Below, one piece after another: positions 7,800 through 50,064 of a stretch of DNA of 61,446 bases. The translations under genes and the position numbers were made by a program. The stretch comes from Chloroflexota bacterium (lineage in GTDB: Bacteria; Chloroflexota; Dehalococcoidia; JACPPY01), in NCBI GenBank assembly GCA_040754215.1, contig JBFMDE010000002.1, forward strand, positions 1-61,446, in the 5' to 3' direction. Under the pieces are notes generated by a model. That model made no database searches, was not told the origin of the DNA, and saw only the letters and a program-made list of their open reading frames with translations. How positions within the stretch are numbered: position 1 is the first letter of the stretch; each line of letters begins with the position of its first letter.

Positions 7800-7812
7800 T
7801 CTGACCTCCGTA

Positions 7813-8976: not shown

Positions 8977-9027
8977 GCAGTCCGTTCCTTCCCTTCATTG
9001 GGTGTATGCCATGGCTAGCGAGACCCC

Positions 9028-10581: not shown

Positions 10582-10616
10582 CAGTTGTCTCCTCTCCTTA
10601 CCGGGATTTGATATCC

Positions 10617-11828: not shown

Positions 11829-11914
11829 GTTGCCCCCGGCTCGCAGGGTGAGTGCCCCTGCTCTCCGAAAGGCAAGGTTGATTCCCCCTGTTGATACCTG
11901 TTACACTGTGCGCC

Positions 11915-12415: not shown

Positions 12416-12420
12416 TTCGC

Positions 12421-13650: not shown

Positions 13651-15065
13651 TGTTCCCGGCAGGGGCGCAGCTTCCAGAAGTAGTTGTGGATGCCCAGGGC
13701 ATCGTGTATCCTGCGGAAGGTGGGCTCCATACGCATGCCCACCTTTATCTTCGCCGGGTCACGGTCGGTGACCTGACCATAGAGCCTGCCCCCTCCATCC
13801 AGGTCCACTGCCGCCAGTACGTTGGGCGGGTCTGGCACCGGCGTCCGCTCGTCCAGGCTGAAGGTGAACAGAGAGCCCTTCTTATCTGAGAGCCTGACCT
13901 CGTCGAAGTCCTTTCTCGCCTGGCAGTAGATACACACGTTCTGCATCGGGAACTGGATATTGCCGCACTGGCGACACCTGTGCCCTCTCAGACGGTACAC
14001 CATCTTGCGGTCCCGCCACAGTAGCGGCAGCGAGGTGCGAAAGCGGTACTCCAAGCTGGGTTCGGGCTCCATCAGGTTGCGGAAGCGGATGTACTTGCCG
14101 TAGTTGGTGAGGAGGTCTTTAGATGATAGATGACGCTTCACGCCACGGCGGTCGCGCACCGCTTCGACCTTCCCTGTAGTGCGGAAGGAGAAGGCAGCGG
14201 CCCCGTCCCCGTAGGTGCCGAAGAGCACCCTGTCCCCGGCCCTGGCCTCCTCCAGGGCGGCCACCAGAAGCATCGGGGCGAAGGCGGCCCCTGTGTTGCC
14301 CAGGACATCGAATAGGGGGTTCTGCACCTGTTTATTCGCATCCAGATTCAGCGTGCGGGCCATTGCGGTGTGCGTACGGGCGTCGGGCGCGTAGAAGACG
14401 GCTTTGGCGAAGTCTTGTGGACTGGCATTGAGCTTCTTCAGCAGGCCGGACACGGCCGCGGGCAGTAACCTGTTGTAGCCTTCCTCAATGATGAACCGTT
14501 CCTCCCAGGTGCGCGGGCCGGCATCGGTGTCCAACCGCCACACGTCTAGGAACTCACTGGAGAGGGCATGGCTGCCCTCGACCTCGGCTATGACGCCGTC
14601 CTTACCGACGATGAAAGCGGCGGCGCCGTCGCCGAAGAGGAGCTCCGATGCCGAGCCGGGGTGTGGCAGTCGCGAATCGGAGGCCACCACCAGCACCTGG
14701 CGTGCCGACCCCGCGGTGACGGCGTCTAGGGCTGCCTGCAGCGCGCTGGCTGCGGCGCGCAGGGAACTGGTGAAGTCCGCGCTGTGAAGGTCATCGCGCA
14801 GGTCGCAGGCAGCAGCCACTATGCTGGCGGAGAGCTTCTCCTTATAGGGCAGCGTGGTGGAGGCGAGGTAGAGGGCATCTATCTGAGTGCGGTCAATGCC
14901 GTTCAGGCAGTCGAGGGCTGCCTCCACCGCCATGGTGATGCTGTCCTCGTCTACGTTGGCCACCGCCCGCTCGCCCTTGCCCCTGCTGCCCCAGACCCGT
15001 GACAGCACCTCACCGCTGAGTCGGTATATCGGGACGTAGGCCCCGTAGCTGACTATGCCTGACAT
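13647..15065 (-). CDS. HMG-CoA-synthase-like domain fused to a DUF35-type zinc-ribbon/OB-fold domain
   Basis: ATG 15065 is preceded by AAAGGAGG. The N-terminus IVSYGAYVPIYRL..VWG is archaeal-HMGCS-like. The C-terminus has CRQCGN..CIYCQ plus an OB-like tail. The track ORF extends spuriously to 15341. Confidence 0.8.
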   Translation of the reverse strand: MSGIVSYGAYVPIYRLSGEVLSRVWGSRGKGERAVANVDEDSITMAVEAALDCLNGIDRTQIDALYLASTTLPYKEKLSASIVAAACDLRDDLHSADFTSSLRAAASALQAALDAVTAGSARQVLVVASDSRLPHPGSASELLFGDGAAAFIVGKDGVIAEVEGSHALSSEFLDVWRLDTDAGPRTWEERFIIEEGYNRLLPAAVSGLLKKLNASPQDFAKAVFYAPDARTHTAMARTLNLDANKQVQNPLFDVLGNTGAAFAPMLLVAALEEARAGDRVLFGTYGDGAAAFSFRTTGKVEAVRDRRGVKRHLSSKDLLTNYGKYIRFRNLMEPEPSLEYRFRTSLPLLWRDRKMVYRLRGHRCRQCGNIQFPMQNVCIYCQARKDFDEVRLSDKKGSLFTFSLDERTPVPDPPNVLAAVDLDGGGRLYGQVTDRDPAKIKVGMRMEPTFRRIHDALGIHNYFWKLRPCREQ

Positions 15066-15088
15066 TGTGATGCCTCCTTTTGTTAGGT

Positions 15089-16006
15089 TCAGTTGGCCTT
15101 CAGTTTGAACACCTTGAGGGCGTTCTCCCGCAAGACCTTCCTCTTGGTCTCGTCCTTGATGGGCAGCTCGAGGAACTCCTTCTTGCACCGCGTCAGGCCG
15201 AACCCGTTGCTGGCCCAGAGTACCTTGTCCTGGCCGCGGACGCTGTCCATGAACCGCACCTGTGCGGGGTCGAGGGAAGACGGATAGTAGGCGCCGATGT
15301 TGCCGTAGACATTGGGGTGCTTCCAGACCATTGACATCCACTCCTCGACCCAGGGCCAGCCGGTATGGGTGAGCACCAGGGTTAGCTCGGGAAAGTCCAG
15401 TGCAACCTCGTCTGCATACATGGGGCGCCCCGGTTCACTGGGCAGAGGCTCTGCCGACTGTCCCGACTGGTAGCAGCACGGTATCCCGAGTTCGATGCAC
15501 TTGGCGTAGAGCGGGTACATCTGCTTGTCGTTGGGCCTCAGGCCGAAGGTTATCGGATGAGCCCACACATACTTGAACCCATAGTCCTTGACCGCCCGTT
15601 CTACGGCCTCCAGGCTCTCCTTGATTCGGAACGGGTTGTACCCGGCACCTCCGACCACCCTGCCTTTCGTTTCCCTGCTTATCTCGGCTAGGGTTTCGAT
15701 GGTGTAGTTGCCCCATAGCCTGTGTTCACGGCGTGACCAGCCAATCATCTGGTCCATGAACACATACTCCACCCCGATGGCGTCCATCTCCTTGAGCATC
15801 TCCTGTACTGAGCCCTTGCCCATTGCGGCCAGCACCTTCCATTCCTCGCCAGGACCCGCACCGATGCGCTTCAGCACCCCGCCGAAGGTGCTCACCGCCA
15901 TGACCTGAAACTCATAGAAGTGGAACAGCTCCTTGGTCTTTTCCGGGGGCAGGCAGTAGAATGGGCGGCACATCGAGTCAATGGCCTTGATTTCACCTAG
16001 CTCCAT
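15089..16006 (-). CDS. Amidohydrolase-2 family metal-dependent hydrolase/decarboxylase
   Basis: 305 aa. TIM-barrel amidohydrolase_2-like pattern (VLTHTGWPW, HP near the centre). Family-level call only. Confidence 0.7.
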   Translation of the reverse strand: MELGEIKAIDSMCRPFYCLPPEKTKELFHFYEFQVMAVSTFGGVLKRIGAGPGEEWKVLAAMGKGSVQEMLKEMDAIGVEYVFMDQMIGWSRREHRLWGNYTIETLAEISRETKGRVVGGAGYNPFRIKESLEAVERAVKDYGFKYVWAHPITFGLRPNDKQMYPLYAKCIELGIPCCYQSGQSAEPLPSEPGRPMYADEVALDFPELTLVLTHTGWPWVEEWMSMVWKHPNVYGNIGAYYPSSLDPAQVRFMDSVRGQDKVLWASNGFGLTRCKKEFLELPIKDETKRKVLRENALKVFKLKAN

Positions 16007-23875: not shown

Positions 23876-26800
23876 CTATGCCTTACGCACGTTGCACAGG
23901 AACGCCTTGTACTCGGGAATCATGGTGTTGGCATCGCCTATGTTTGGTGTCAGGACATTCGCACTGTCGCCGGTCGAGAGCCCGATGTAGCCCCAGTGCC
24001 AGGGCATGCCTATCTCGTGTATCACCTTGCCGTTCATGCGGAACGGCTTGAACCTCTTGGTGACCAATGCCTTGGCGGTCACCTTGCCGCGGGCCGTCTC
24101 GACCACTACCATGTCTTCGTTGGCGATGCCCTTCTCTGCCGCCAGCTCCTCGCTGAGCTCGATGAACATCTCGGGCATCAGCTCCACGGACCAGGGCAGG
24201 TTCCTGGTCATCTGCCCTGCCTGCCAGTGCTCCACGATGCGGTAGGTGGTACAGACGATGGGGTATTTGTCGGAGTCACCCTTGAAGTCCATTTCGCCTG
24301 CCCAGAGCTTGATGCACGGGTCGTTCTGGGTACCGGAGAGGGGGTTCTTCACCGGGCTCTCCCAGGGCTCGTAGTGCTCGGGGAATGTGCCGTCCGCCAT
24401 GCCCTTCGCAAGTAGTGGGCCGTTGGGGAGGGCCGCCGTGAAGAGGCGTGCCACGCCCTCCGCGGTCATGATGAAGGGGTACTTCCCGGCGTCGGCCGCC
24501 ATGGGCGGATATCCGCCGTCAGCGATGTCGCCCAGCCATTTCGCACCCGCGGCATCCCACTTGATCACCGGGTGTTCGCTATCCCAGGGGTTGCCGTTGG
24601 GGTCAACGGAGGCGCGGTTGTACACGATGCGCCTGTTGACCGGCCAGGACCAGGCCCACTTGGAGTACAGGCCGACGTTGAACGGGCTGTCGTCCAGGTC
24701 GCGGCGCGCCATCATGTTTCCGGCCTCAGTATAGGAGCCACTGAATAACCAGTTGCCGCAGGAGGTTGTGCCGTCACTCTTGAGTGCGGCGAAGCTGACC
24801 ATGAGCTTGCCCGTCGCCAGGTCGTAGCCGTTTATCTCCCTGGCCACCTTGTGCGGGTCGGCATGCGTGCCGTAGTCCCAGGTAAGCCTGGTGATTGCAT
24901 CGCGGTTGGGAGCGGCAGCATCGGCGTCGTAGAGTTTCTTTATCCTTATCATGAGGTCGTTTATGATGTCCAGGTCCGGTTTCGCCACACCGGGGGCGTC
25001 CGCGCCCTTATACCGCCACTGCGCCCAGCGACTGCTATTGGTGACGCTGCCCTCCTTCTCGAAGGAGGCAGCTGCCGGCAGCGCGAAGACCTCGGTCTTG
25101 ATGTCGGCGGGGTTCACCCTGGGGCGTTTCCAGAAGTTGCCAGTCTCGGTATGCCAGAGGTCCACCGAGACCAGCCAGTCCAGCTTTTCCAGGGCCTTGC
25201 GCGTCATGTTGGCGTTGGGGCCGCCGACGGCGGGGTTCATGCCCCAGACCATCAGACCCTTGATGATACCGTCGTACATGGCGTGGAACAGGGAGATGAA
25301 GGAGTAGTTATCGCTCCCCTTCGGCAGATACTGGTAGCCGAACTCGTTGTCCTTCGTGGCAGCGTCGCCGTACCATGCCTTGAGCATGCTCACCAGATAT
25401 TTGGGAAGGTTCTGCACCCAGTTCGCGCTTTTGGGGTCTGTCCACTTGGGCGTAGAGCGGTCCAGGTATTTCTGAAGCGTCTCGTCGGTGTTGAGTGGCC
25501 TCTCGAGGTAGCCGGGGAGAAGGTGGAAAAGCAGGGCGTGGTCGGTGGCGCCCTGGACATTGGACTCACCCCGCGCTGCGTTCACGCCGCCGCCGCAGAC
25601 GCCGATGTTGGCCAGCAACAGCTGCAAGACGCAATATGAACTGCACACCTGCGAGCCGTTAGTGTGCTGTGTGGTGCCCATGGCGTAGAGGATAGTCCCG
25701 GCCTTGCCCGGTGCGCCGGTGTCAGCGAAGGCGCGGCAGACCTCGAGGAACTTGTCTTTAGGTGTGCCGCACGTCTCCGACACCTTGTCAGCCGTGTAGC
25801 GGGCATACTGCTTCTTCAGCAACTGGAAGACGCAGTTGGGGTCGCTGAGGGTCATGTCCTTCTTGGGGATACCCTTGTCGTCTACCTGGTAGCTCCAGGT
25901 TGACTTGTCGTAGCTGCGCTTCGACGCGTCGTACCCCGAGAACAGGCCATCAAGGTCTGCCGGCCCTTTGAAGGCAGGGTTCACCAGATAAGAGGCGTTG
26001 GTGTACTCTTTGAGGTACACCATGTTGTAGTTCTGCGGATTGGCCAGCATGTCGTCAATGACGTATTTGATCATGCCACCAATGAAGGCGACATCGGTGC
26101 CCGACCTCATCGGGGCGTAGACGTCTGCCTTCGCGGCGCTGCGGCTGAACCGCGGGTCAACGACGATGAGCTTGCCGCCTCGCTCCTTCGCCTTCGTGAT
26201 GTGTCCGAAGGCCGCCGGGTGGTTCTCTGCGGGGTTGCCCCCGATGATAAACACGCAGTCGCTGTTGGCGATGTCGTTCCAGTGGTTGGTCATCACTCCT
26301 CGACCAAAGTTGTTGCCCAGACCGGCAACAGTGGAGGAATGTCATATGCGGGCCTGGGTCTCGATGTACACCATGCCCAGGCTCCGCAGCATCTTTATCA
26401 GGAGGTAGCACTCCTCGTTGTCCAGTGCTGAGCTCCCGACTTCGGCGATGGCCTCAGTGCGGTTGACCGTGTAGTTGCCGTCCTTGGCCTTCCAGTTGGC
26501 GTCGCGGGTCTGCTTGATGAGCTGGGCGATGCGGTTCAGGGACCAGTCCCAGTCTTTCGCCTCCCAGTCGGCGGCCCCCGGCGCGCGGTATAGCACCTTG
26601 CTCAGCCGCCTCGGGTTGTCGGCGGATAGTTGCCGCATCGAGGCCCCCTTGGAGCAGGCTGCGCCGCGGTTGACTGGGTGGTCCGGGTCGCCCTCGATGT
26701 TGACCACCTTGCCGTTGACCGCGGCCACCAGAAAGCCGCATCCGCTGCCATCGTACGGGCATATCGTCGGCGACTCCCCGACTTTCTTATGCAGGGGTAT

Positions 26801-26914
26801 CGTGCGGGGTGACGTGGCGCCGAGGGCGGCACCTCTGCTGGCAATACTGTACAGTAATGCGCCGCCGGCGCCGGCTCCAGATAGCTTGAGAAATTGCCTG
26901 CGATTCAGTTCCAC
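23876..26914 (-). CDS. fdnG: Selenocysteine-containing formate dehydrogenase alpha subunit (molybdopterin, Tat-exported)
   Basis: Track ORFs 26342..26914 and 23876..26296 are in frame across TGA 26342-26344. The read-through sequence is ARI-U-HSSTVAGLGNNFGRGVMTNHW. Twin-arginine signal RRQFLK. GTG start is preceded by AAAGGAGG. Confidence 0.9.
26298..26341 (-). promoter_or_regulatory. SECIS-like hairpin immediately 3' of the in-frame UGA
   Basis: On the minus strand GUUGCC (26329-26324) pairs with GGCAAC (26317-26312) around loop GGUCUG. An outer UCCUC/GAGGA pairing extends the structure. The hairpin starts about 12 nt after the UGA. Confidence 0.6.
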
Positions 26915-35415: not shown

Positions 35416-37035
35416 ATGACGGATAGACCAGCACTCGACCAGTTGTCGAAAGAGAACAGGGAACATTGGGAGAAGGAGGAGGCGGTACTGCTGGCCCATC
35501 GGCAGGAGGCCTATGATATCGGGGGCCAAAAGCAGATAGAAAGGCTTGCCAAGCAGGGTAAAAAGCCCGTCCGCCAGCTCATCGCACAACTGGTAGACCC
35601 GGGAGCCGAATTCTTTGAGCTGGGGCTGGATGCCGGCTACCACATTGGATATGAAGAGCAGCCCCACATACCTGGGGGGGCGGTGGTCACCGGCGTGGGC
35701 AAGATACATGGCAAGGACTGCATGATCATAGCCAATGAGAGCAGGATGACCGCTGGTACGTACTATCCCATCACGCTGAAGAAGCACCTGCGCGCACAGA
35801 CCATAGCCGATGAGTGTGGGTTGACCTGCGTCTACATAGCAGACTCGGGCGGTATCTTTCTCCCCATGCAGGCCCAGTGCTTCGCCGATGAAGGCATGTT
35901 CGGTTCGATGTTCTACAACATGTGCAACATGTCGGCCAAGGGCATGAAGCAGTACACCCTGAGCACAGGCGGCAACACCGCGGGCGGGGCGTACATCGTA
36001 TACCTGGCTTGCGAGTCCATAATGATAGAGAAGCTGGCTTTCGCCTTCCTTGCTGGGCCTCCCATGGTCAAGGCAGCTATCGGTGAAGACGTGAGCATGG
36101 AGGACCTTGGTGGTGCCTATGTCCACACCAAACACTCCGGCGGCTGCGACCACTTCGTGAGGACACAGGAGGAGGGGATAAAGAAACTGAGGGAGTTGAT
36201 CGAGTTCGACCCGCCTCAGAGATGTTACATAGAGCGCAGGGAGCCAAAGGAGCCGAAGGTCCCGCCGGAGAGACTTTACGAGGTCTTGCCCAGGGATACT
36301 TACAGGGGCATCAATGTTCGCGAGGTCATAAGGTGTATCGCTGACGATAGCTACTTCTCGGAGTACAAGAAGGAGTACGCCCCCGGAAGGGGAGAAACGA
36401 TCGTGTGTGGCAAGATGTGGCTGAAGGGTATTCCGGTGGGCGTGGTCGCCTCTAATAGCAACGGGGTGATATTCATCGAGGCGGCAAGGAAGGCGGCGGA
36501 GTGGATGATCCGGTGCGGCACCAGCCATATTCCTCTGCTGTTCATTCAGAACGCGCCGGGTTATATGGTGGGTAAGAACGAAGAGTGGGGTGGGATTGGC
36601 AAGTACGGGTCGGACATGGTGCGGACGTGCAGCACAGTCAAGGTGCCGAAGGTACAGTGGGTCATCGGGCCCGACCACGGGGCAGCAAACTACGGGATGT
36701 GTGGCAGGGGCTACAAGCCCAGGTTCTGTTTCCAGACGATGAGGGCAAGGACCTCTGTGATGTCGGGGCGGACGGCTGCCTTCATCCTGACCAGCATTGA
36801 GCGCAGGAAGGCGCAGGATGCAGGAAAGGAGATGGATGAGGAGGCAGTCAAGAAGTTCGAACAGAAGATGGTGGAGAAATACGAGCACGAAGCACATCCA
36901 TTCTACACCGGAGCGCGCTTGTTCCATGACGGCGTAATCACCTTCCGCGAGTCGCGGGATGCGCTGGCCAGGGCATTTGAACTGGCGTTACGCCAGCCGC
37001 TCGAGGACTCGGTGTTTGGGAACGTGAAGTTCTGA
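35416..37035 (+). CDS. Acyl-CoA carboxyltransferase (MccB / GcdA-like)
   Basis: 539 aa. GTYYPITLKKHLRAQ, VYIADSGG and AGGAY motifs resemble the methylcrotonyl-CoA carboxylase beta family. AGGAGG lies before the ATG. Confidence 0.85.
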   Translation: MTDRPALDQLSKENREHWEKEEAVLLAHRQEAYDIGGQKQIERLAKQGKKPVRQLIAQLVDPGAEFFELGLDAGYHIGYEEQPHIPGGAVVTGVGKIHGKDCMIIANESRMTAGTYYPITLKKHLRAQTIADECGLTCVYIADSGGIFLPMQAQCFADEGMFGSMFYNMCNMSAKGMKQYTLSTGGNTAGGAYIVYLACESIMIEKLAFAFLAGPPMVKAAIGEDVSMEDLGGAYVHTKHSGGCDHFVRTQEEGIKKLRELIEFDPPQRCYIERREPKEPKVPPERLYEVLPRDTYRGINVREVIRCIADDSYFSEYKKEYAPGRGETIVCGKMWLKGIPVGVVASNSNGVIFIEAARKAAEWMIRCGTSHIPLLFIQNAPGYMVGKNEEWGGIGKYGSDMVRTCSTVKVPKVQWVIGPDHGAANYGMCGRGYKPRFCFQTMRARTSVMSGRTAAFILTSIERRKAQDAGKEMDEEAVKKFEQKMVEKYEHEAHPFYTGARLFHDGVITFRESRDALARAFELALRQPLEDSVFGNVKF

Positions 37036-37097
37036 GGACTGCCGCGCCAGCTTGGCGTGTTACGACCGTTAGACAGCGATAAAGGAGGATATGCAAG

Positions 37098-37886
37098 ATG
37101 ACAGACGTATTGTTGACTGAACGCAAGGGCCATGTCCTGGTGCTGACACTGAACCGCCCCGAGGCCATGAACTGCTTCAACTTCGCGTTGCTGAATGCGC
37201 TCAGCAGTGCTGTCAAAGCAGCACATTTCGATGCAGAGGTCAGGGCGACGGTCATCACCGGGGCATCGGGGTCGTCGAAGCCGTCCTTCTGCACCGGGGC
37301 CGACCTCGCTGAGAGGAGGACGATGTCGGAGGACGACGTCCGCAGGTTCATATTCACCATAAGCTCGACGTTCGCGGAAGTGGAAAACCTCAGGATGCCC
37401 GTTATCTGTGCCATAAATGGTTTTGCCTTTGGCGGCGGCCTGGAGTTGGCCCTGGCCTGCGACATTCGTGTGGCGGCCTCCAACGCGGTGGTGGGTCTGA
37501 CAGAGACAAGCCTGGCGGTCATTCCAGGTGCCGGCGGCACGCAGCGACTGCCTCGCATAATCGGGGTTGCCAGAGCCAAGGAGATGATATTCATGGCCAA
37601 GCGCATCTCGGCCCAGGAGGCGTTGTCCTATGGGCTGGTGAGCTATGTGGTAGAGCCAGACCAGTTGATGCCGACGTGTCTCGACATGGCGAACAAGATA
37701 GCCAGGAACGGCCCCGTCGCTGTTCAACAGGCGAAGTTCGCCATTAACAAGGGGGCCGAATGCAGCCTGGACATCGGGTTGAAACTGGAGTCAAATGCAT
37801 ACTTCTTGACGATACCCACTGAGGACAGGCTCGAGGGACTCAATGCCTTTAAGGAGAAGCGTGAGCCGGTCTACAAAGGTAAATAG
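37098..37886 (+). CDS. Enoyl-CoA hydratase (crotonase family, methylglutaconyl-CoA hydratase-like)
   Basis: 262 aa. INGFAFGGGLELALACDIRVA and PGAGGTQRLPR motifs. Confidence 0.85.
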   Translation: MTDVLLTERKGHVLVLTLNRPEAMNCFNFALLNALSSAVKAAHFDAEVRATVITGASGSSKPSFCTGADLAERRTMSEDDVRRFIFTISSTFAEVENLRMPVICAINGFAFGGGLELALACDIRVAASNAVVGLTETSLAVIPGAGGTQRLPRIIGVARAKEMIFMAKRISAQEALSYGLVSYVVEPDQLMPTCLDMANKIARNGPVAVQQAKFAINKGAECSLDIGLKLESNAYFLTIPTEDRLEGLNAFKEKREPVYKGK

Positions 37887-37959
37887 TGGGCGTCTCGGAT
37901 GAGCCCGCTGTCACGGAACGAGTGGTCAGGAAGCAAAACCTAGGAGGTAATAAGAAGGA

Positions 37960-38982
37960 ATGGGTCTGAACTACCCGAAGAAGGTAAGACTGGCGGACAT
38001 CACTGTAAGGGATGGCCTCCAACACGAGGAGAAGACCATCCACACGCGAGCAAAGTTGTGGATAGTGGAGCAGGCGGTACTGGCTGGCTTCAAGCGCATT
38101 GAGGTGACGAATCTGGGCAATCCAGTTGGGATGCCACAGTTCGCCGATGCCGACCAGGTGCTGAAGGGGATCAGGCAGAGCAAGACGTTGAAGGACAAGC
38201 TGGCTGGTGTGGAGATCACCGCAGTCACCATAAGGGAACGGGCCATCGAGCGAGCCATAGAGGCGAGGAAAGAGGGCTGGGGCCCAGACCGCATCCTGTT
38301 GATGGTCTCCACGAGCCCATCCCACCACAAGACCAACAGCGGCCTGACGCTGGAAGAGTACTGGGCTATGGCTGAGAAGTACATCCCGCTGGCCCATGAT
38401 GCTGGCATGAAGGTCTGTGGCACGGTGAGCACCATCTGGGGATGCCCCATTGAGGGGCCCACGGAGCTGAAGAAGGCGGTGGAGTTCACCCAGCGCTGGC
38501 TGAAGATCGGAGCCGATGACATCGAACACGCCGACCACGACGGCTCCGCACCGCCCAACAAGGCCTATGAGTACTTCTCCATGGTCCTGGATGCGATGCC
38601 CAACACCGACCTGCACATCGCTCATTTCCATGTGAGCAGGGGCTGGGGTCTGGCCAACGTCCTGGCGGCGATGCATGCCGGCATAGACATCTTCGAGGGC
38701 ACCTTCGGTGGTATTGGCGGGCAGCCGGCGAACTTCGTTGACGGGTATCCGGTGGCCGGCACCGGCAAGTACTACTACGAGGACCCCAACAGGGTGGGGC
38801 TGACGGCGTTGGAAGACATGGTGGTGATGATGGACGAGATGGGAATAGAGCTTGGCCTGGACGTAGACAGGGTGCTGGACATCGGCCGCATGGTGGAGAA
38901 GATCGTGGGTAGGCAGCTCCGCTCTGAGTCCGTCTACCAGGGACGTATCCCGAAGAAGCCGCGGCCACAGTTTGCCAAATAG
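37960..38982 (+). CDS. HMG-CoA-lyase-like DRE-TIM metallolyase (atypical)
   Basis: 340 aa. VRDGLQHE and the HFH metal motif are present, but the usual GGCP signature reads GIGGQPA and is followed by an insertion. Confidence 0.75.
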   Translation: MGLNYPKKVRLADITVRDGLQHEEKTIHTRAKLWIVEQAVLAGFKRIEVTNLGNPVGMPQFADADQVLKGIRQSKTLKDKLAGVEITAVTIRERAIERAIEARKEGWGPDRILLMVSTSPSHHKTNSGLTLEEYWAMAEKYIPLAHDAGMKVCGTVSTIWGCPIEGPTELKKAVEFTQRWLKIGADDIEHADHDGSAPPNKAYEYFSMVLDAMPNTDLHIAHFHVSRGWGLANVLAAMHAGIDIFEGTFGGIGGQPANFVDGYPVAGTGKYYYEDPNRVGLTALEDMVVMMDEMGIELGLDVDRVLDIGRMVEKIVGRQLRSESVYQGRIPKKPRPQFAK

Positions 38983-41989: not shown

Positions 41990-42055
41990 GATATGGTCTG
42001 CATCGGCTGACGCCCCCACAGACCACCCGACAGTGACTCGGCAGGAGGTGGTTCG

Positions 42056-45000
42056 ATGTCCAGGTGGTGTCCGCGGTGGTCGAAGTGTCTCTCTATCGTC
42101 CTGGTCTTAGCCCTGGTAGTCCAGCTCATCCCCTCTGTCGCAGGGGCATCTGTCGTATCCCGCGTTGCATCCTCGGTCCATTCCCTGCTGACCAGCGCCT
42201 CTGGAGATGGCCTCCAGCTTACCGACGGTCCTGCTAGCTCAGCCGGATTGGCGCGCCAGAGGCTACCCAAACCACCGAGCCCGCCAAAGCCACCGCAGCC
42301 AGCAATCCCGCCCGAACCCTCGGTCTCCGTGGAGGTGCTGCCCGACCAGCCCGCCGAGCTTGTCTCCACCACCGGACAGGTCAGGGTCTCCTTCCCCACC
42401 GGGGCGGTCGCCGAGAAAGTGACGGCTACATACACCCCCGTGCCATCCGAGTCCACGGCCGGCCCCGTACTCTTCAAGGTATTCAGGCTCGAGGCCATGT
42501 CGGCCAGCGGCGCCACCGCCGTCACCAGCTTCGGCAAGGAGCTGGAGATAAGCCTCAGCTACACCGACAAGGACATCGCCGGTCTCGACCCCAGGACGCT
42601 GATGCTCTACTACTTCGACGAGGTCAAGGCGGACTGGGTACAGCTGCCTTCCAAGGTAGACGCCTCGGCCCATAGGGTGACCGCCAGCACCGATCACTTC
42701 ACCGTCTATGGCGGAGGCGCCATACCTGCCTACTCCATCCCCGGCACCATCATGGACTTCCAGGCCGACCTGCATTCGGGGACCGCGACGGCCAGATACC
42801 CCATCGAGCTTCCACCGGGCCCCGGCACCTTCCAGCCCGAGCTGACGCTCACCTACAACTCCGGCTCTGTGGACGAGATGAAGAGCAAGCGGGACGTCGG
42901 CTCCTGGGTGGGCATGGGCTGGACGCTGCACTGGAGCCGCGTGTTCTACAACGAGGACGAGGACAAGTACTTCCTGGAGTTCAACGGTGCCTCCTACGAG
43001 CTGATACTGGGCACGGACGGCATATACCGGATGCAGGGCCAGTTCTGGAAGATGACCAAGCCAAATGGCACCACCTTTGAGCTGTGGGACACCGACGGCA
43101 CCTACTACCGCTTCGGCGGCACCACGGACTCCGTCCAGTACCGTGTTACCGATGGCAATACCGTCAACTATAGGTATGACCTGAGCCTGGCCGAGGACGT
43201 CCACGGCAACCAGATGACTGTCACCTACTCCCAGGACGTGTGGAACGGGGACGTGCGCTCGGCCTACCCCCTGGACATCCACTACGGCGTGGGCAGCGCG
43301 GTCAACGTGCACTTCAACTCCAGCTTCGACATCACCGGCGACCCCACCGACGGCAACCTGAGAGACGACAACCCCAGGAGCACCCCGGCCAACCCGGCGC
43401 CCGAGATAATGGAGAACAAGAAGCTGACCTCCATCGAGGTCAAGGTGAGCGGCAGCCAGGTGCGCAAGTACGAGTTCGCCTACAACACCACCGACAGCTA
43501 CTACTCCGCCGACTACGGCGGCATTTACTATGCCGGCACGCACACTCTCTCCTCCATCACGCAGAAGGGCACCGGCGCCGAGTCCCTTCCCGCCATGACC
43601 TTCTCCTACCAGAACAAGTACATCCGCTACTACAACTCCTCGGGCAGCGTCACCGCTTCGCTGAGCTGGCCTCACCTCTATCAGGCCAACAGCGGCTTCG
43701 GCGCCACGGTCAGCTACACCTATGCCGAGAGGCCGAGCGCCCCTGCCTACAGCATCTGGACGCGGGAGGTGGTGACCCAGAGGCAGCTGAACCCCGGCAT
43801 CGGCTCCACACAGATCACCGCCTATACCTACGTCGGCTACCCCAAGATATACCTCGACCCTGCCCTGCCCGACTACTCCAACATGGCATACCGTGGCTTC
43901 GACCAGGTGGAGGAGGCGGACGCCGCGGGCAACGTCACCAGGCACTTCTTCTACACCAACGGCTACTACTTGGTAAACAACCCCCTGGGCTGGCCGGAAG
44001 AGAAGTGGGCTTTCGACCTTCCAGGCCGGGAGTACCAGACCCACTGGCTGGAGAAGGGGCTGGTGGTGAGGACGTCCTTCCGCGACTGGACGACCGTCTG
44101 GGACGGCACTGTGGACCACCCCATCCTGCATGGCGTCGGAGAGGTCCAGGGAGACGAGGTGGCCTGGACCTACTACTGGTACGACGCCTATGGCAACGTC
44201 GTCCGGGAGCAGCGGTACGGCGACGCGGAGCAGAGCGGGGACGAGAGCACCGTCTTCCGCGTGTACTACCCCAACACCACCGACTGGGTCGTCAACAGGG
44301 TGGCCAGGGAGAGCATCTACAGCGGGGAGCTGTCCACCGAGCCGCCCGACGGCATCGGGCTGAAGCAGCGGACGTACTACTACTATGATGGCAACAACAG
44401 CGACCCGACCGTGCCGCCCACCAAGGGCGACCTCACCAGAGTCGCGCAGTGCCTCAGCGCCTCGATCCTGGGGCCCTCGTTCTACTATACCTACGACAGC
44501 TACGGGAACAGGACGAGCGAGCAGGACCCCAATGGCAACACCACCTCCTATACCATAGATACCACCTACTATACCTATGTCGCCAGGAAGACCTACCCCG
44601 CCGTGGGGGGCTCGCCGGCCATGTACGAGGACTACACCTGGGACTACGTGCTGGGCAGGCCGCTGAGCGTGACCGACGTCAACGGCCAGGTCACCTCCTA
44701 CGAGTACGACACCCTGGGCCGGAGGACCAAGGAGATACGGCCGGGCGACAGCTCCGCCAGCGCCACCGTGAAGTACACCTACGTCTCCTGGGGCACCATC
44801 AACTCGCAGCACGTCAAGTCGGAGCAGAAGGTGGCGGAGGGCGACTACCTGTGGCAGAAGACCTACTTCGACGGGGCGGGCCGCGTGGTGCAGGTGCAGG
44901 CCCGAGCCGAGGACAACAAGAGCATAGTCTCCTCCACCACCGCCTACAGCAACCGCGGCCTGGTGGAGAAGAGCTACGCCCCCTGGATGCTGGCCTCGGA

Positions 45001-48000
45001 GCAGAGCCAGTACCAGGCGCCCGGGAGTTCCCAGCCCTACGACTCGTACGAGTACGATGCCCTGGGCAGGGCCGTCTCGACGGAGAAAGCGGACGGCACC
45101 ATATCTGGCACCGACTACATGGGCCCCTGGGAACAGGCGGCCACCGACGAGAAGGGGGCCAGGAAGAGCTACAGCTACGACGCCTTCGGCCAACTGGCCC
45201 AGGTGAAGGAGTACGACCTGCCACCGACGTACCTCAGCCAGTTCGGCGGCCCGGCAGAGCTATCCGGCCCTCAAGGGATATCCGCGGTCAGGGGTGGGCT
45301 GACCTTCGTCGCCGACACCGGCAACCACCGCGTCCAGAAGTACTCCGGCGGCGTGCTCAAGGGGTCGGTGGGCAGCTATGGCAGTGGCGACGAGCAGTTC
45401 AAGTCACCCTACGATGTGGAGGTCACCGGCGACGGGCGGTACTTCTATGTCGCCGATACCACCAACAACCGGGTGGCCCAGTGGTCCAACGAGGTCTACG
45501 AGCTCCTCCAGTTCGGCAGCTACGGGGAGGCCTCCCGCCAGTTCAACACTCCCAGGGGCGTGGCGCTGAACTCGGCTGGGAATGTGGTGTTTGTTGCGGA
45601 TACCTACAACAACCGCGTTGTCAGGTATAACTCCGCCGGCACCTACTACACCAAGTGGGGCAGCTCTGGCGAGGGCGACGGGCAGTTCAACTGGCCCTAC
45701 GATGTCGCCGTGGACAGCTCCAGCTACGTGTACGTCGTTGACAACGGCAACAACCGCATCCAGAAGTTCAACGTCATAGGCGGCTTCATCGCCAAGTGGG
45801 GCGAGTACGGGAGCGGGGACGGCCAGTTCTGCTATCCCGAGGGCATCGCCTTCGGCAACAGCTACATCTACGTGGTCGACACTCAGAACTTCCGCGTGCA
45901 GTACTTCACCACCTCGGGCACGTATGTGGGCCAGTGGGGCAGCGAGGGCTATGGCGAGGGAGAGTTCGTATGGCCAACGGACGTCGCGGTGGCCCCCGAC
46001 GGCTATGTGTACGTGGCCGACTGGTGGGGCATACAGAAGTTCACCTCCACGGGCGGCTTCGTCGCCAGGTGGCTCAACGACACCCCCATTGACGGCGAGT
46101 ACTGGTACCCCCAGCACATCGCCGTGGACGGCAGCGGGAAGGTCTACGTGACGGACTACGGCAACCGGGCCCTGGTCTTCGACTCCAGCGGAAACTTCAT
46201 CGAGAAATGGGGCAGGCCGGGCTACGACGAGGGCGAATTCAACAGGCCCCTTGGCATCGCCTACGACCGGACGAACGACAAGGTCTGGGTGGCCGACAGC
46301 AACAACCACCGGGTGCAGAAGTTCGAGGCCGCCACCAGGTTCGTCAGGAAGTGGGGCAGCTATGGCACAGGCAACGGCTATTTCAGGTCTCCCAAGGGTA
46401 TCGGGGTAGACGATGCCGGCAACGTCTACATGGCCGATACCGACAACAACCGCATCCAGAAGTTCGATTCTGCGGGCACCTATGTCACCAAATGGGGCAC
46501 CCTGGGCTCCGGCAACGGGCAGTTCAACAAGCCCTGGGACGTGGCCGTGGACTACAGCGGCTACGTGTACGCGGTGGACAAGGACAACAACCGGGTGCAG
46601 AAGTTCACCTCAACGGGGACCTTCATCACCAAATGGGACGTCACCAACCCTACCAGGCTCGCCATTGATGGCGCGGGCTACGTCTACGTGTCCAGCGCCT
46701 CGGCGAACCAGGTGCAGAAGTTCACCCCGGAAGGGGGCCTGCTATTAACATGGGGCACCGGTGGCACTGGCAACGGCGAGTTCAACAGCCCGCAGGGCAT
46801 CACCCTGACCGGGGACAGCCTGAGCGAGCTCCAGGTGGTGGACAGCGGCAACAACCGCGTGCAGTGCTTCGACGGCATGGGTACGTCCTACTCCACAACG
46901 AGCTACTCCTACGATGTGCTGGGCAACCTCACCCAGGCGGTGGACAACGCCAGCAACACCACCACCATCAGCTACAACATGCTCTCCCGCAAGACGGGGA
47001 TGTCAGACCCCGACATGGGGAGTTGGAGCTACGCCTACGATGACAACGGCAACCTCACCAGCCAGACCGATGCCAGGAGTCAGACGCTCACCTTCGAATA
47101 CGATGCCCTGAACCGTTTGACAGCGAGGAAGAACGGTGCCAACACCCTGGCGAGCTACACCTATGACAGCACCACTGGCGGGAACATGGGCAAGGGTCGC
47201 CGCACCGGAATGACGGACGCCGGCGGCTCGGCCACCTACGTCTACGATGCACGCGGGCGCACGACCAAGGAGGACCGCGTCATAGATAGCGTCACCTACA
47301 CCACGGAGTACGCCTACGACCCGGCGGACCGCGTCTCCACTATTACCTACCCCACCAACGAGGTGGTGACGCAGGCCTACAACGCCCGCGGGCTGCCCTA
47401 CTCCCTGTCAGGCTCGGTGGCGGGGACGCTGGTGAGCGCCGCCTCCTACAACCAACTCGGCCAGACGGGCCAGGTAGACCTGGGCAACGGGCTGCGCACG
47501 GTGTTCAACTACCATGGGCTGGACACGCTGGACGGGGGCGACCCCTCCAGCTACTACGGCAAGCTCTACCGCATCAAGGCATACAAGGTCTCCGACAGCA
47601 CCGAGCGCCTGCACCTCAAGTACTGGTGGGACGCCGCAGGGAACCTGACTTCGCGCAAGGACGTGATGGCCTCCGAGACAGAGGGCTTCTCCTACGACTT
47701 CCTCGACCGGCTCACCGGCGCCAGCGGGCCGTACACGGAGTCGTACGCCTACAACGCCATAGGGAACATGACGAGCAAGAACGGCGTGAGCTACACCTAT
47801 GGCACAAAGCCCCACGCTGTGACCGGCGTGGGCAGCTACACGAATACCTATGATGCCAACGGCAACATGCTCACCCGCCAGAACGCCACCGGCAGTCAGG
47901 CGCTGACCTGGGACGTGGAGAGCCACCTCTCCCGGGTAGAGGGCACAGGCGGGGGCTACTCGGGCACCACCACCTTCGTCTACGACGGCGACGGCAACCG

Positions 48001-49042
48001 CATCAAGAAGACCGAGGGCGGCCAGACGGTGGTGTACGTCAACAGGTACTACGAGAAGAACACCACCACGGGCGAGGCCACCTCCCACTACTACCTGGGA
48101 GGCCAGGAGGTAGCGATAAAGAAGGGCGCCGTCCTCGAGTACCTGCACCAGGACCACCTGAGCAGCAACTCCCTGAGCACGGATACGGCCGGGGCGCAGG
48201 TGTCCACCCTGAAGTTTTATCCCTTCGGGGCCACGAGGTCATCGAGTGGCACCCTGGGCACCAACAAGATGTTCACCTCGCAGAGGCTGGACACGGGGGC
48301 CGACCTCTACTTCTACAACGCGAGGTACTACGACCAGGGGCTGGGGAGGTTCATCTCTGCGGACACCGTGATACCGGACTTCAGGAACCCCCAGGCCTTG
48401 AACCGCTACACATATGTGCTCAACAACCCCTTGAAGTACATTGACCCCACGGGGCACAAGTGGTTGGACGATGTTGATGAACCCACGCCGGTGTCTCCCG
48501 CGCCGCCTGCACCGCCCACCCCAGACCCCTTTACTGGTGCCCCCGATCCTACCCCACCCGGTGTGCCGGATGGCGGGGCTACTCAGCCATCGCCGATAGA
48601 GACGGTGCCGGGAGTGCCCGACGTTGGGGCTGGTGCTCCAGGTGGCCACCCGGTTGATGACCCGGGCTTGCCTGTCACGAACGCGCCGGATGCTGGCCAA
48701 GAAATAAACCTCGGCGTGGTCAGGATAACTCACGTGTCGGATCAAGCGGAGCTTTACTTAGACGCCGCCGCTGTCCTTGGCGATGTCGTATCTTTTATCC
48801 CGACTCCTTATACAGTTGTCGGAGGCTTTGTGGTGTCTCTCGTGAGCAGTTACGCTGGAATGATCCGTACAGGTGTTAAGTACGGCCGAGGGGAAGCCAC
48901 TGCAGAAGACCTCGACATTTCCGTTGCAACTAATTTCACCGGAATGTTACCCTGGGTTGGTGTCATACCGGCTCTCATACAGTTGAACCATGACGCAAAG
49001 AATCAGGGGGTCAAAGTACAATGGTTCTGGAGTAGCGACTGA
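42056..49042 (+). CDS. Giant secreted Rhs/YD-repeat protein (TcB/TcC- or teneurin-like) with an internal NHL block and a variable C-terminal tip
   Basis: 2328 aa. Signal peptide, proline-rich spacer, SpvB/TcB-like N-region (GTFQPELTLTYNSGS..GMGWTL), many YD repeats, 12 NHL repeats and an Rhs core ending in NNPLKYIDPTGH. Confidence 0.9.
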   Translation: MSRWCPRWSKCLSIVLVLALVVQLIPSVAGASVVSRVASSVHSLLTSASGDGLQLTDGPASSAGLARQRLPKPPSPPKPPQPAIPPEPSVSVEVLPDQPAELVSTTGQVRVSFPTGAVAEKVTATYTPVPSESTAGPVLFKVFRLEAMSASGATAVTSFGKELEISLSYTDKDIAGLDPRTLMLYYFDEVKADWVQLPSKVDASAHRVTASTDHFTVYGGGAIPAYSIPGTIMDFQADLHSGTATARYPIELPPGPGTFQPELTLTYNSGSVDEMKSKRDVGSWVGMGWTLHWSRVFYNEDEDKYFLEFNGASYELILGTDGIYRMQGQFWKMTKPNGTTFELWDTDGTYYRFGGTTDSVQYRVTDGNTVNYRYDLSLAEDVHGNQMTVTYSQDVWNGDVRSAYPLDIHYGVGSAVNVHFNSSFDITGDPTDGNLRDDNPRSTPANPAPEIMENKKLTSIEVKVSGSQVRKYEFAYNTTDSYYSADYGGIYYAGTHTLSSITQKGTGAESLPAMTFSYQNKYIRYYNSSGSVTASLSWPHLYQANSGFGATVSYTYAERPSAPAYSIWTREVVTQRQLNPGIGSTQITAYTYVGYPKIYLDPALPDYSNMAYRGFDQVEEADAAGNVTRHFFYTNGYYLVNNPLGWPEEKWAFDLPGREYQTHWLEKGLVVRTSFRDWTTVWDGTVDHPILHGVGEVQGDEVAWTYYWYDAYGNVVREQRYGDAEQSGDESTVFRVYYPNTTDWVVNRVARESIYSGELSTEPPDGIGLKQRTYYYYDGNNSDPTVPPTKGDLTRVAQCLSASILGPSFYYTYDSYGNRTSEQDPNGNTTSYTIDTTYYTYVARKTYPAVGGSPAMYEDYTWDYVLGRPLSVTDVNGQVTSYEYDTLGRRTKEIRPGDSSASATVKYTYVSWGTINSQHVKSEQKVAEGDYLWQKTYFDGAGRVVQVQARAEDNKSIVSSTTAYSNRGLVEKSYAPWMLASEQSQYQAPGSSQPYDSYEYDALGRAVSTEKADGTISGTDYMGPWEQAATDEKGARKSYSYDAFGQLAQVKEYDLPPTYLSQFGGPAELSGPQGISAVRGGLTFVADTGNHRVQKYSGGVLKGSVGSYGSGDEQFKSPYDVEVTGDGRYFYVADTTNNRVAQWSNEVYELLQFGSYGEASRQFNTPRGVALNSAGNVVFVADTYNNRVVRYNSAGTYYTKWGSSGEGDGQFNWPYDVAVDSSSYVYVVDNGNNRIQKFNVIGGFIAKWGEYGSGDGQFCYPEGIAFGNSYIYVVDTQNFRVQYFTTSGTYVGQWGSEGYGEGEFVWPTDVAVAPDGYVYVADWWGIQKFTSTGGFVARWLNDTPIDGEYWYPQHIAVDGSGKVYVTDYGNRALVFDSSGNFIEKWGRPGYDEGEFNRPLGIAYDRTNDKVWVADSNNHRVQKFEAATRFVRKWGSYGTGNGYFRSPKGIGVDDAGNVYMADTDNNRIQKFDSAGTYVTKWGTLGSGNGQFNKPWDVAVDYSGYVYAVDKDNNRVQKFTSTGTFITKWDVTNPTRLAIDGAGYVYVSSASANQVQKFTPEGGLLLTWGTGGTGNGEFNSPQGITLTGDSLSELQVVDSGNNRVQCFDGMGTSYSTTSYSYDVLGNLTQAVDNASNTTTISYNMLSRKTGMSDPDMGSWSYAYDDNGNLTSQTDARSQTLTFEYDALNRLTARKNGANTLASYTYDSTTGGNMGKGRRTGMTDAGGSATYVYDARGRTTKEDRVIDSVTYTTEYAYDPADRVSTITYPTNEVVTQAYNARGLPYSLSGSVAGTLVSAASYNQLGQTGQVDLGNGLRTVFNYHGLDTLDGGDPSSYYGKLYRIKAYKVSDSTERLHLKYWWDAAGNLTSRKDVMASETEGFSYDFLDRLTGASGPYTESYAYNAIGNMTSKNGVSYTYGTKPHAVTGVGSYTNTYDANGNMLTRQNATGSQALTWDVESHLSRVEGTGGGYSGTTTFVYDGDGNRIKKTEGGQTVVYVNRYYEKNTTTGEATSHYYLGGQEVAIKKGAVLEYLHQDHLSSNSLSTDTAGAQVSTLKFYPFGATRSSSGTLGTNKMFTSQRLDTGADLYFYNARYYDQGLGRFISADTVIPDFRNPQALNRYTYVLNNPLKYIDPTGHKWLDDVDEPTPVSPAPPAPPTPDPFTGAPDPTPPGVPDGGATQPSPIETVPGVPDVGAGAPGGHPVDDPGLPVTNAPDAGQEINLGVVRITHVSDQAELYLDAAAVLGDVVSFIPTPYTVVGGFVVSLVSSYAGMIRTGVKYGRGEATAEDLDISVATNFTGMLPWVGVIPALIQLNHDAKNQGVKVQWFWSSD
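45240..46875 (+). repeat. Twelve tandem NHL-type beta-propeller repeats (about 45 aa each) within the Rhs ORF
   Basis: F-x-x-P-x-G-[IV]-A-[VL]-D...[VY]-[VA]-D-x-x-N-[NH]-R-[VI]-Q-K-F recurs 12 times. The DNA-level 21-mer aacaaccgcatccagaagttc recurs. Confidence 0.85.
48443..48457 (+). other. Rhs core C-terminal DPxG motif (expected aspartyl autoproteolysis site)
   Basis: DPTGH follows YYNARYYDQGLGRFISADTV...NRYTYVLNNPLKYI, the canonical Rhs-associated core end. Confidence 0.6.
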
Positions 49043-49512: not shown

Positions 49513-50064
49513 TCATAAACTCAACAGCTGCTTCAGCGGACTCGCCTTTTCACGCATCCACACCGATGGCTCTTGCTCGGATCGCTCCCATCTTGCCAGC
49601 GTGCCCGGGTCGATGCCTGCCAACCTCGCAGCCTGTTCCTGTGTGAAACCCTTCATAAATCTCGCCTTCCTCAACCTTGCCCCGAAGCCTCTGAGGTCGT
49701 GGACCGACGGATGGCATAACCTCGCCACCAAGTCCCCATAGTCAACCCCAAGAAGTTCGCAGAGGGACTTCACCTTGAAATAACCCCTCTTGGGGAGTCC
49801 TCCCAACTTCTCCCAGTTCACGACAGTCATCTCGTCCACTCCAATGGCCTTCGCCACATCCACCTACCTCAGCCCTTTCTCCAACCTTGCTTTCCTGATA
49901 TACTCTCCGAAGGTAGAGGAAGGATAACGGGATGTGCTGAATGACAGTACAAGCGGTTTCACAAACGAATCTGGCTGGTGGTTGTGGATTGCGACTGCGT
50001 GGTTGCTCACTGTGTTTCCACAGCAGCCGGAACTCTGAGCGCTTGCCGACAGGAACGTTGACAC
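49513..50064 (-). pseudogene. Tandem XRE-family HTH regulator interrupted by an in-frame TAG
   Basis: Track ORFs 49864..50064 and 49513..49863 are contiguous and in frame. FGEYIRKARLEKGLR-TAG-VDVAKAIGVDEMTVVNWE reads as one XRE HTH. A second HTH follows (FGARLRKARFMKGFTQEQAARLAGIDPGTLARWE). Confidence 0.6.

Follow-up and report, generated by a model that had tools for sequence, protein, structure and literature searches.

What kind of protein carries twelve NHL blades in the middle of a YD-repeat shell, and to which of the known cocoon toxins is it related? The question is raised by a gene of a Chloroflexota bacterium (Dehalococcoidia) located at 42056..49042 (+) of contig JBFMDE010000002.1; this 61,446-bp contig is the entire window analyzed here. 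The gene was one unbroken open reading frame (ORF) of 2328 aa, and its product was identical to MEW6033336.1, which carries the NCBI title [quoted passage not shown] (MAG, metagenome-assembled genome), forms a singleton cluster and is known from one contig. A previous interpretation made from the DNA letters, here called the sequence-only reading, had described a giant secreted Rhs/YD shell protein with a double NHL propeller inserted mid-shell. All the elements it listed were found in this single intact ORF, essentially where it had placed them, and it had overlooked an overlapping 81-aa membrane-protein ORF, an N-terminal beta-sandwich ending in H-F-T and the hydrophobic character of the tail. 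The predicted fold marks the protein as a naturally occurring BC cocoon (TcB-TcC fusion type) made of a single chain.

Domain organization and predicted fold of the shell

From the N-terminus, the protein consists of a signal peptide, a Pro-rich spacer, a beta-sandwich, a shell half of ~820 aa, 12 NHL blades, a shell half of ~520 aa containing the Rhs core, and a 194-aa tail (Table 1). Matches to RHS_repeat flanked the NHL block on both sides (Pfam/NCBIfam), and the block itself was matched by Pfam NHL in 10 stretches (5e-65).

For fold prediction, two overlapping pieces were modeled separately from homologue alignments, model A covering aa 85-1060 and model B aa 1030-2140. Model A, with a predicted local distance difference test (pLDDT) of 84.5 and a predicted template modeling score (pTM) of 0.80, was compared with known structures by Foldseek, using template modeling (TM) scores on the query (TMq) or the target (TMt). 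It showed TMq values of 0.62-0.63 to the TcB structures TcdB2-TccC3 (4O9X), YenB (4IGL_A) and TcdB1 (6L7I_F), with alignments covering essentially all of YenB, and it also matched the SpvB N-domain 6p0x (E 2e-6, TMt 0.51). TMq was only 0.14-0.30 to Rhs proteins of type VI secretion systems (T6SS), and TM scores were 0.12-0.20 to structures of teneurins and teneurin-like proteins (TLPs), with a TMq of 0.15 to the TLP 9ifo. In model B (pLDDT 74), the shell superposed on the TcC chains 4igl_B and 6l7i_G with TMt 0.64-0.65 and a root-mean-square deviation (rmsd) of ~8 A. The top Foldseek E-value for model B was obtained with 9ifo (1e-38), yet at a TMq of 0.31 and an rmsd of ~25 A; its high rank is due to the summing of local NHL and YD matches. 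The TcB-TcC fusion proposed by the sequence-only reading is thus borne out by both halves, the N half resembling TcB (TM 0.63) and the C half TcC (TM 0.65).

Each half scored an equal TM against its isolated subunit and against the TcB-TcC fusion, showing that the part before the NHL block corresponds to TcB and the part after it to TcC, and placing the block about at the B/C seam. From the Foldseek alignment spans and these equal scores, we infer that the block lies at the seam or no more than a few hairpins away from it.

The kinship of the first half with TcB was visible only from the predicted fold, since a single-sequence search of the PDB with aa 229-1054 gave no match even at E=1. This half opens with an SpvB-like segment (..PGPGTFQPELTLTYNSGS..GMGWTL). 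The proposed TcB/SpvB-like N-region therefore held by fold (TcB and 6p0x), but not by Pfam, where SpvB was not significant on the query and was found in more distant relatives. A family-profile search of the PDB (alignment A1) matched only the C-terminal shells of Rhs proteins, TLPs and TcC, and in sequence searches the C-terminal shell was about equidistant from T6SS Rhs proteins, TLPs and TcC. The FG-GAP gate propeller was absent at the site it occupies in TcB: the query was contiguous through this site (aa 9-1054 corresponding to positions 13-1065 of the family hidden Markov model, HMM), and no Pfam FG-GAP match was found.

The alignment first made for structure prediction (A2) was dropped, as it misaligned the pre-insertion shell, the NHL block of the relatives lying upstream. 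In a check of alignment A3, the first ~80 query residues were scattered over N-terminal columns, and the same scatter probably explains the poor modeling of the first ~80 residues in model B. Alignment A4 was used for structure prediction in place of A2 and A3.

The NHL module and its insertion loop

The sequence-only reading had placed the NHL block at 45240-46875. Its count of twelve repeats was confirmed and its boundaries were refined to 45260-46891 (aa 1069-1612), with blades of 41-48 aa each. That the block is an insertion was shown by comparison with P0032, a 1790-aa relative without NHL repeats, which aligned before the block (query 12-1054 to 11-1084, 39% identity) and again past it (query 1610-2134 to 1090-1614, 60.5% identity). 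This colinearity shows that a 558-aa NHL module replaces a short hairpin loop: the junction reads ..VQVEEFNDATPATVYATTRYSYNPLGNL.. in P0032 and ..AQVKEYD-[NHL]-TTSYSYDVLGNL.. in the query. Over all 12 blades, the query cassette was colinear with the cassettes that P0005, P0009 and P0003 carry at a different shell loop (site A, see below), at 42-44% identity, and the cassettes had diverged about as much as the shells. In the query, the same module is therefore mounted on another loop.

The twelve blades probably form two six-bladed propellers. Complete blade counts in the relatives clustered at 6, 12 and 17-18, an isolated six-blade propeller of P0006 (1706-1978) aligned to aa 1346-1612 of the query with 43.8% identity, thereby corresponding to blades 7-12, and part of the NHL region of model B superposed on the six-bladed NHL domain 6XG7 (TMt 0.68).

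The most economical view is that the NHL block is an accessory target-binding module, because among close homologues NHL blocks are present or absent, differ in number and occupy other loops. Of the earlier proposal that the propellers bind the target, the accessory nature of the module is thus supported by its variable presence, number and loop, whereas binding itself is a suggestion. An analogy with the gate propeller of TcB is not supported, as the block maps to HMM ~1062 and not to the TcB site at ~540.

Inspection of about 270 relatives revealed no other case of the same arrangement, a 12-blade NHL block at the B/C seam. A word-index search with the NHL-to-shell junction returned YD fragments only. 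An exhaustive HMMER search with the junction region (aa 980-1130) was swamped by multi-NHL proteins and was set aside, giving only the distant Rhs proteins P0146 and P0259.

Distribution of the family and its insertion loops

The protein belongs to a large, uncharacterized Chloroflexota/Dehalococcoidia family. Relatives were found almost only in MAGs of this group, often with several paralogues per genome, as in JACQUA01 with four paralogous loci. A family HMM was built from nine homologues lacking NHL repeats (A1), and insertions were mapped onto its positions. At HMM 532-544, TcB-like relatives carry an insert of ~390-414 aa with the classical FG-GAP propeller of TcB (in P0076, FG-GAP at 413-631 and TcdB_midN at 756-884). 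At HMM ~672-699 (site A), 42 of 53 close relatives contain an insert of at least 80 aa, and every NHL block detected in these 53 proteins was located there except for the second block of P0006, a six-blade block at HMM ~1346. Site-A NHL blocks mostly have about 6 or 12 blades, with 17-18 in P0002. The 12-blade block of the query maps to HMM ~1060-1066, and blocks of 18 and 12 blades were found at HMM ~1419 in the distant P0146 and P0259. A placement of the query insert at HMM 1167, suggested by global hmmalign, was rejected, as local alignments (HMM and BLAST) and a closer look at the loop located it at 1060-1066.

About half of the relatives bear NHL blocks (~6, 12 or 18 blades), ~365 aa upstream of the loop used in the query, and relatives with 40-60% shell identity contain none, about 6, about 12 or 17-18 blades; P0032, P0020, P0021 and P0024 are close relatives without any propeller. 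The mid-shell NHL block, which had been taken as an oddity, is therefore common in the family as an NHL insertion within the shell, and it is the loop used here that is unusual. In P0029, P0048 and P0050, this same loop contains a domain of ~145 aa. Further hot spots were detected at HMM 567, 911, 1167, 1303 and 1419, with domains similar to fn3 and the purple acid phosphatase N-terminal domain, pairs of Laminin_G_3 lectin domains, and other repeats. As judged from these alignments, at least eight shell loops of the family accept foreign domains.

The ~145-aa inserts (P0029 aa 1612-1762, P0048 aa 1504-1646 and P0050 aa 1707-1846) showed no Pfam match. The same was found for a 364-aa shell-loop segment in P0034 (aa 1610-1973) made up of about eight "QQTSDGGY" repeats.

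The tails following the conserved motif NPLKYxDPxGH were mutually unrelated and included Tox-REase-7, Tox-REase-5, TNT and Colicin_E5 domains as well as one all-hydrophobic tail. Unrelated tails behind a conserved motif are the signature of polymorphic toxins.

At one homologue locus (L005, 10001-17270 of Dehalococcoidia MAG contig JBBDXE010000032), a TcB-like gene (1621 aa) and a TcC-like gene (809 aa) were found to overlap by 26 nt, and the C-terminal ~80 aa of the B protein were Arg-rich and unaligned. The use of this "split" B/C pair as a marker of the seam was dropped, as the pair seems to be one fused BC gene with a frameshift and not a natural system of two genes.

Rhs core, tail and candidate immunity gene

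By TIGR03696, the Rhs core spans aa 2054-2134 (66.9 bits against a cutoff of 32.5). It keeps the catalytic residues R2098, D2103 and D2130, with the two Asp residues 27 positions apart (canonical spacing ~23), and ends ..NNPLKYIDPTGH (2134), from where the tail begins; cleavage after H2134 is expected from these residues. The tail consists of a Pro/Gly/Asp-rich linker of about 86 aa (aa ~2135-2221) and a domain of ~107 aa in which hydropathy analysis showed two hydrophobic segments (aa ~2240-2265 and ~2290-2306). No match to the tail was obtained in Pfam, PADLOC or the PDB. A word-index search also gave no homologue, but this was a weak search in which the parent protein itself was unrecovered, so that the designation "orphan tail" is provisional.

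Directly downstream, an 81-aa ORF was found whose ATG overlaps the stop codon of the toxin gene (TGATG), with a GGAG 9 nt upstream; this organization supports coupled translation. The product is predicted to contain two strongly hydrophobic helices (aa 1-20 and 50-81) and showed no family match. By analogy, the tail may be a membrane-targeting toxin and the 81-aa membrane protein is likely the product of its immunity gene. Pairs of this kind, in which a small immunity protein of the membrane accompanies a membrane-active tail, are familiar. In TLPs, immunity genes are located directly downstream, and the hydrophobic C-terminal domain of the Bacillus protein BiTLP permeabilizes Escherichia coli only when exported (PMC13018210).

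The stretch between the 81-aa ORF and an enoyl-CoA hydratase gene contains one or possibly two helix-turn-helix ORFs of the XRE type (116 and 66 aa; 49513-50064, minus strand), which lie adjacent to each other in different frames and may represent a split regulator gene.

N-terminal region

The Sec-type leader proposed by the sequence-only reading was recognized by eye and by hydropathy: R3, R7 and K10 are followed by a 17-residue hydrophobic core and VAG-A. A signal-peptide-like N-terminus was also present in 38 of the 53 relatives, and most of the others look N-terminally truncated. No wall-binding domain was detected by Pfam in aa 1-250.

The beta-sandwich that follows the Pro-rich spacer ends with the motif D-H-F-T (H214, F215, T216), ~20 residues before the start of the shell. 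Among the aligned relatives, the H and F of this H-F-[ST] motif were invariant and the third residue was S or T. It is reminiscent of the HFS motif at which ZU5/Nup98-type domains undergo autoproteolysis, and the beta-sandwich is possibly a ZU5-like autopeptidase or a stalk domain. ZU5 homology was unconfirmed, with a Pfam E-value of 0.11 in one of ten members and no match in a PDB profile search. In SpvB-RHS toxins, ZU5 has been reported at the N-terminus as frequent but not obligatory (PMC3482391).

Gene features and genomic neighborhood

The coordinates of the features are listed in Table 1.

Table 1. Features of the cocoon toxin gene and the overlapping downstream ORF, with positions in the 61,446-bp window.
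Feature	Residues (aa)	Position (nt)	Strand	Basis and remarks
Whole gene	2328 aa	42056..49042	+	Rhs/BC-type cocoon toxin, MEW6033336.1; intact ORF, exact NCBI match
Predicted Sec signal peptide	1-~31	42056..42148	+	MSRWCPRWSKC-LSIVLVLALVVQLIPSV-AGA/S; read from sequence, hydropathy maximum 3.33
Pro-rich spacer LPKPPSPPKPPQPAIPPEP	70-88	42263..42319	+	Read from sequence
Family-conserved N-terminal beta-sandwich	~91-222	42326..42721	+	All-beta in model A, pLDDT 64-88; family alignment
TcB-like first shell half	236-1054	42761..45217	+	Model A fold match; contiguous with family HMM 13-1065
Inserted NHL module (14-aa linker and 12 blades)	1055-1612	45218..46891	+	Absent from P0032; colinear with cassettes of relatives
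Blades 1-6, putative first six-bladed propeller	1069-1348	45260..46099	+	Blade counts of relatives; model B on 6xg7
Blades 7-12, putative second six-bladed propeller	1349-1612	46100..46891	+	P0006 alignment
TcC-like second shell half including Rhs core	1613-2134	46892..48457	+	RHS_repeat 4.5e-28; TIGR03696; Foldseek; 55-60% identity to homologues
Variable tail	194 aa	48458..49039	+	Hydropathy; predicted membrane-active toxin
ORF of 81 aa, MEW6033337.1 (hypothetical protein), candidate immunity protein	81 aa	49042..49287	+	Overlap with toxin stop; hydropathy

As stated by the sequence-only reading, the ORFs of 150 aa or more in the window contained no domains of TcA, VgrG/PAAR, T6SS or T7SS (type VII secretion system). 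Apart from the toxin gene, these ORFs were metabolic or housekeeping genes, including genes for acyl-CoA metabolism, formate dehydrogenase, a two-component system, UvrD, an M50 protease, SPFH/NfeD and histidine biosynthesis. Four homologue loci (L001, L003, L004 and L005) likewise had housekeeping or unrelated neighbors and small downstream ORFs, and no TcA or secretion machinery was found at any of them. A Sec leader without partner genes, which the sequence-only reading regarded as unusual, is thus a trait of the family.

The toxin gene lies amid genes of acyl-CoA metabolism (35416-38982 and 6042-15341) encoding carboxyltransferases, enoyl-CoA hydratases, an HMG-CoA-lyase-like protein, acyl-CoA dehydrogenases and a thiolase. 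No mobile-element genes were found nearby, so the locus is unlike a recent island. GC content was uniform along the toxin gene. Over window positions 42001-48000 it was 0.63-0.64, compared to 0.57-0.60 in the flanks, and the AT skew was strongly positive (+0.11 to +0.23); this contrast may simply reflect a repeat composition rich in Y, D, N, T and G rather than foreign origin. Promoter and terminator scans around the toxin gene were uninformative.

Elsewhere in the window, the alpha subunit of a formate-dehydrogenase-type molybdopterin oxidoreductase (23876-26914, minus strand) was found in two ORFs, 26342-26914 and 23876-26296, parted by a single in-frame TGA (readthrough ETQARI*HSSTVAGLG). 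From its sequence, this ORF pair is probably one selenoprotein gene, with the TGA at the classical selenocysteine site.

Proposed mode of action and alternative explanations

We consider it fairly probable that the protein is a Sec-exported polymorphic Rhs toxin with a single-chain TcB-TcC capsule, a membrane-targeting tail and an NHL accessory binding module. The N-terminal leader would direct the protein through Sec. Chloroflexota are generally regarded as single-membrane bacteria and, if so, Sec export alone would bring the protein to the cell surface or into the medium. The Pro-rich spacer and the beta-sandwich ending in H-F-T would form a stalk and, more speculatively, an autoproteolytic release point. 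About 1340 aa of YD repeats would fold into one closed shell, in which the aspartyl protease of the Rhs core (R2098, D2103, D2130) would cut after H2134, the 194-aa tail staying inside. On an outward loop near the B/C seam, the NHL blades would attach to the surface of the target; once released, the tail may insert its two hydrophobic segments into the cytoplasmic membrane of the target and permeabilize it, while the translationally coupled 81-aa membrane protein would shield the producer.

Several points weigh against this reading. That the shell is closed and that the NHL blades face outward in a 2x6 arrangement is read from two separately modeled pieces, and in model B pLDDT was low at blades 1 and 6-8. 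Without the TcB gate propeller, no element was identified as the seal of the shell, and no release trigger for the tail was identified. Neither the tail nor the 81-aa ORF has detectable homologues, so that their roles as toxin and immunity protein are assigned by position, hydropathy and analogy, and the hydrophobic tail might instead serve as an anchor in the membrane.

If the tail is an anchor, the protein might be a giant surface adhesin or S-layer-associated protein, held by a C-terminal hairpin on a Pro-rich stalk, with the NHL blades binding a substrate or neighboring cells. The 86-aa Pro-rich linker and two hydrophobic segments of the tail do resemble a stalk and an anchor, neither the tail nor the 81-aa ORF showed toxin or immunity homology, and TLPs have also been considered as possible cell-cell contact proteins (PMC13018210). 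We regard an adhesin as unlikely, since the intact and highly conserved Rhs core with its R/D/D residues predicts cleavage and encapsulation of the tail, relatives hold bona fide nuclease and NADase toxin domains at the tail position, and an N-terminal Sec leader combined with a C-terminal anchor would require an unusual topology. The same shell could also be a toxin whose NHL module is structural, being a plug or gate that replaces the TcB propeller, or a dimerization element. Something must close the shell in a family lacking the TcB gate propeller; the NHL module is common among the relatives, and in both teneurins and TcB a propeller lies beside the shell opening. The existence of close relatives without a propeller (the four named above) shows, however, that it is not required to complete the shell. 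Besides, the module is found at four or more different loops across proteins, at odds with one fixed sealing role, and lectin-type and fn3 domains fill equivalent loops, which together leave a structural role with a low probability. That the position of the block is an artifact of metagenome mis-assembly between paralogous Rhs genes is extremely improbable. MAGs of this group hold several paralogues (four loci in JACQUA01), YD repeats are prone to recombination, and the protein is a singleton from one contig; against this, the frame is intact through both junctions, both junctions lie in one hairpin loop, an insertion hot spot shared with three other proteins, and GC is uniform across the gene. 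The identity of only 42-44% between the NHL cassette and any known cassette further means that there is no known source for a chimera.

The two remaining explanations assign the protein to known classes. As a genuine Tc BC subunit, it would dock on a TcA pentamer encoded elsewhere and its tail would be injected into eukaryotic or other cells. Both halves are indeed closest in fold to TcB and TcC, and the search for TcA was confined to the 61-kb window and four homologue loci. The assignment is nevertheless very unlikely: the query is contiguous through HMM 532-544, where the TcA-binding FG-GAP gate propeller would be, no TcA adjoins any of the four homologue loci, and the small membrane ORF coupled to the gene points to a need for self-protection, as is typical of antibacterial toxins. 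The query also carries a Sec leader, whereas Tc subunits exit by lysis or a type 10 secretion system (T10SS; PMC13018210). Highly doubtful, and slightly more so, is a bacterial TLP of a family ancestral to animal teneurins. The combination of NHL repeats, YD shell, Rhs-core motif, small hydrophobic C-terminal domain and downstream ORF is that of BiTLP (PMC13018210), and both the Foldseek E-value of 9ifo for model B and a weak Pfam TEN_NHL match point in this direction. The E-value, however, sums local NHL and YD matches, the N half is far closer to TcB (TMq 0.63) than to 9ifo (0.15), the blades number twelve and not six, and ~820 aa of TcB-like shell lie ahead of the NHL repeats, so that the domain order differs. 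A Sec-exported Rhs toxin with a BC-type capsule and an accessory NHL module is therefore retained as the preferred reading.

Implications

Rhs/YD cocoons are a universal form of toxin packaging, and the way in which cocoon toxins without an injection machine find their target and release their cargo was stated in 2026 to be open for TLPs (PMC13018210). It is conceivable, although we propose it tentatively, that the BC-type cocoon of Dehalococcoidia and other Chloroflexota is a modular display scaffold in which at least eight surface loops take up interchangeable binding domains (NHL propellers in six-blade units, pairs of ConA-like lectins, fn3-like and further domains) and a conserved 12-blade cassette has moved between loops. 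If true, the NHL-YD pairing of teneurins would be one outcome of recurrent mobile combination and not a single ancestral architecture. Cocoon toxins would then be deliverable without TcA, T6SS or T7SS and could be retargeted only by swapping wall-mounted receptor-binding modules, and nature would already have mapped permissive insertion sites for the engineering of Tc/Rhs capsules. Repeated combination of NHL and YD at different positions bears on the origin of the teneurin architecture, and the family lends itself to comparative work on the ligands of the propellers. The finding also points to interbacterial antagonism in Dehalococcoidia; to our knowledge, little is known on contact-dependent competition in this group.

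Comparison with known systems

T6SS Rhs effectors (RhsA 7Q97, Tse5 8CP6 and Tse15 8UY4) share with the query the YD cocoon and the Rhs core; over the C-terminal shell, the profile search gave E-values of 1e-35 to 1e-40. The tail of Tse5 is a membrane pore-former. Unlike these effectors, the query contains no PAAR, VgrG or clade domain (Pfam/NCBIfam), no T6SS genes were found in the window, and its N half is remote in fold (see above). WapA-type toxins resemble the query in having a Sec leader, a YD shell, a polymorphic C-terminal toxin with an immunity gene, and no dedicated secretion system. They differ in that no wall-binding repeats were detected in the query, which has a much larger, TcB-like shell and inserted NHL propellers.

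TLPs (BiTLP 9IFO/9PT5) and teneurins share with the query NHL repeats combined with a YD shell, the Rhs-core motif, a small C-terminal domain and a downstream ORF; a Sec leader (SPI in monoderm TLPs) and the lack of a known delivery machine are further similarities. TLPs, which were characterized in 2026, are operationally defined by an FN-plug, NHL and YD-shell adjacent in that order, and the six phyla in which they were reported exclude Chloroflexota (PMC13018210). They contain an FN-plug, one NHL propeller and a shell of ~880 aa, whereas the query has no FN-plug and shows a TcB-like half, 12 blades and ~520 aa of shell. The term "teneurin-like" used in the sequence-only reading is thus not supported in its defined sense, given this order and the TM scores of the N half to TLP and teneurin structures.

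The TcB-TcC cocoon (4O9X; YenB-YenC2 4IGL) is the closest structural class, with an SpvB-like start, a continuous YD shell and the aspartyl autoprotease motif of the Rhs core; at ~20 kDa, the query tail would also fit within the cargo limit of the cocoon. In contrast to TcB-TcC, the query is a single chain with a Sec leader; its shell is about 25% shorter and is interrupted near the seam by a 558-aa NHL module, and its candidate immunity gene suggests a bacterial target. It has no FG-GAP gate and no TcA nearby, and membership among Tc components fails on the gate propeller and probably also on TcA dependence.

The closest category is that of the SpvB/TcdB-type RHS polymorphic toxins. Polymorphic RHS toxins with a signal peptide, SpvB and an integrin-like propeller are already known, having been cataloged by comparative genomics and listed for Chloroflexi (Zhang et al., 2012; PMC3482391). 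The query shares with them the signal peptide, a start that is SpvB-like in fold, the RHS shell, the polymorphic tails and the occurrence in Chloroflexi, and it has its N-terminal beta-sandwich (ZU5 homology unconfirmed) where ZU5 is expected. It differs in its propeller, which is of the NHL type, doubled, and located ~820 aa past the shell start (HMM ~1062 compared to ~540). Literature searches turned up no account of BC-type cocoons with NHL repeats in Chloroflexota. Genuinely unusual compared to the systems described are a single-chain BC cocoon lacking the gate propeller, permissive loops with swappable domains, and an NHL cassette at the B/C seam.

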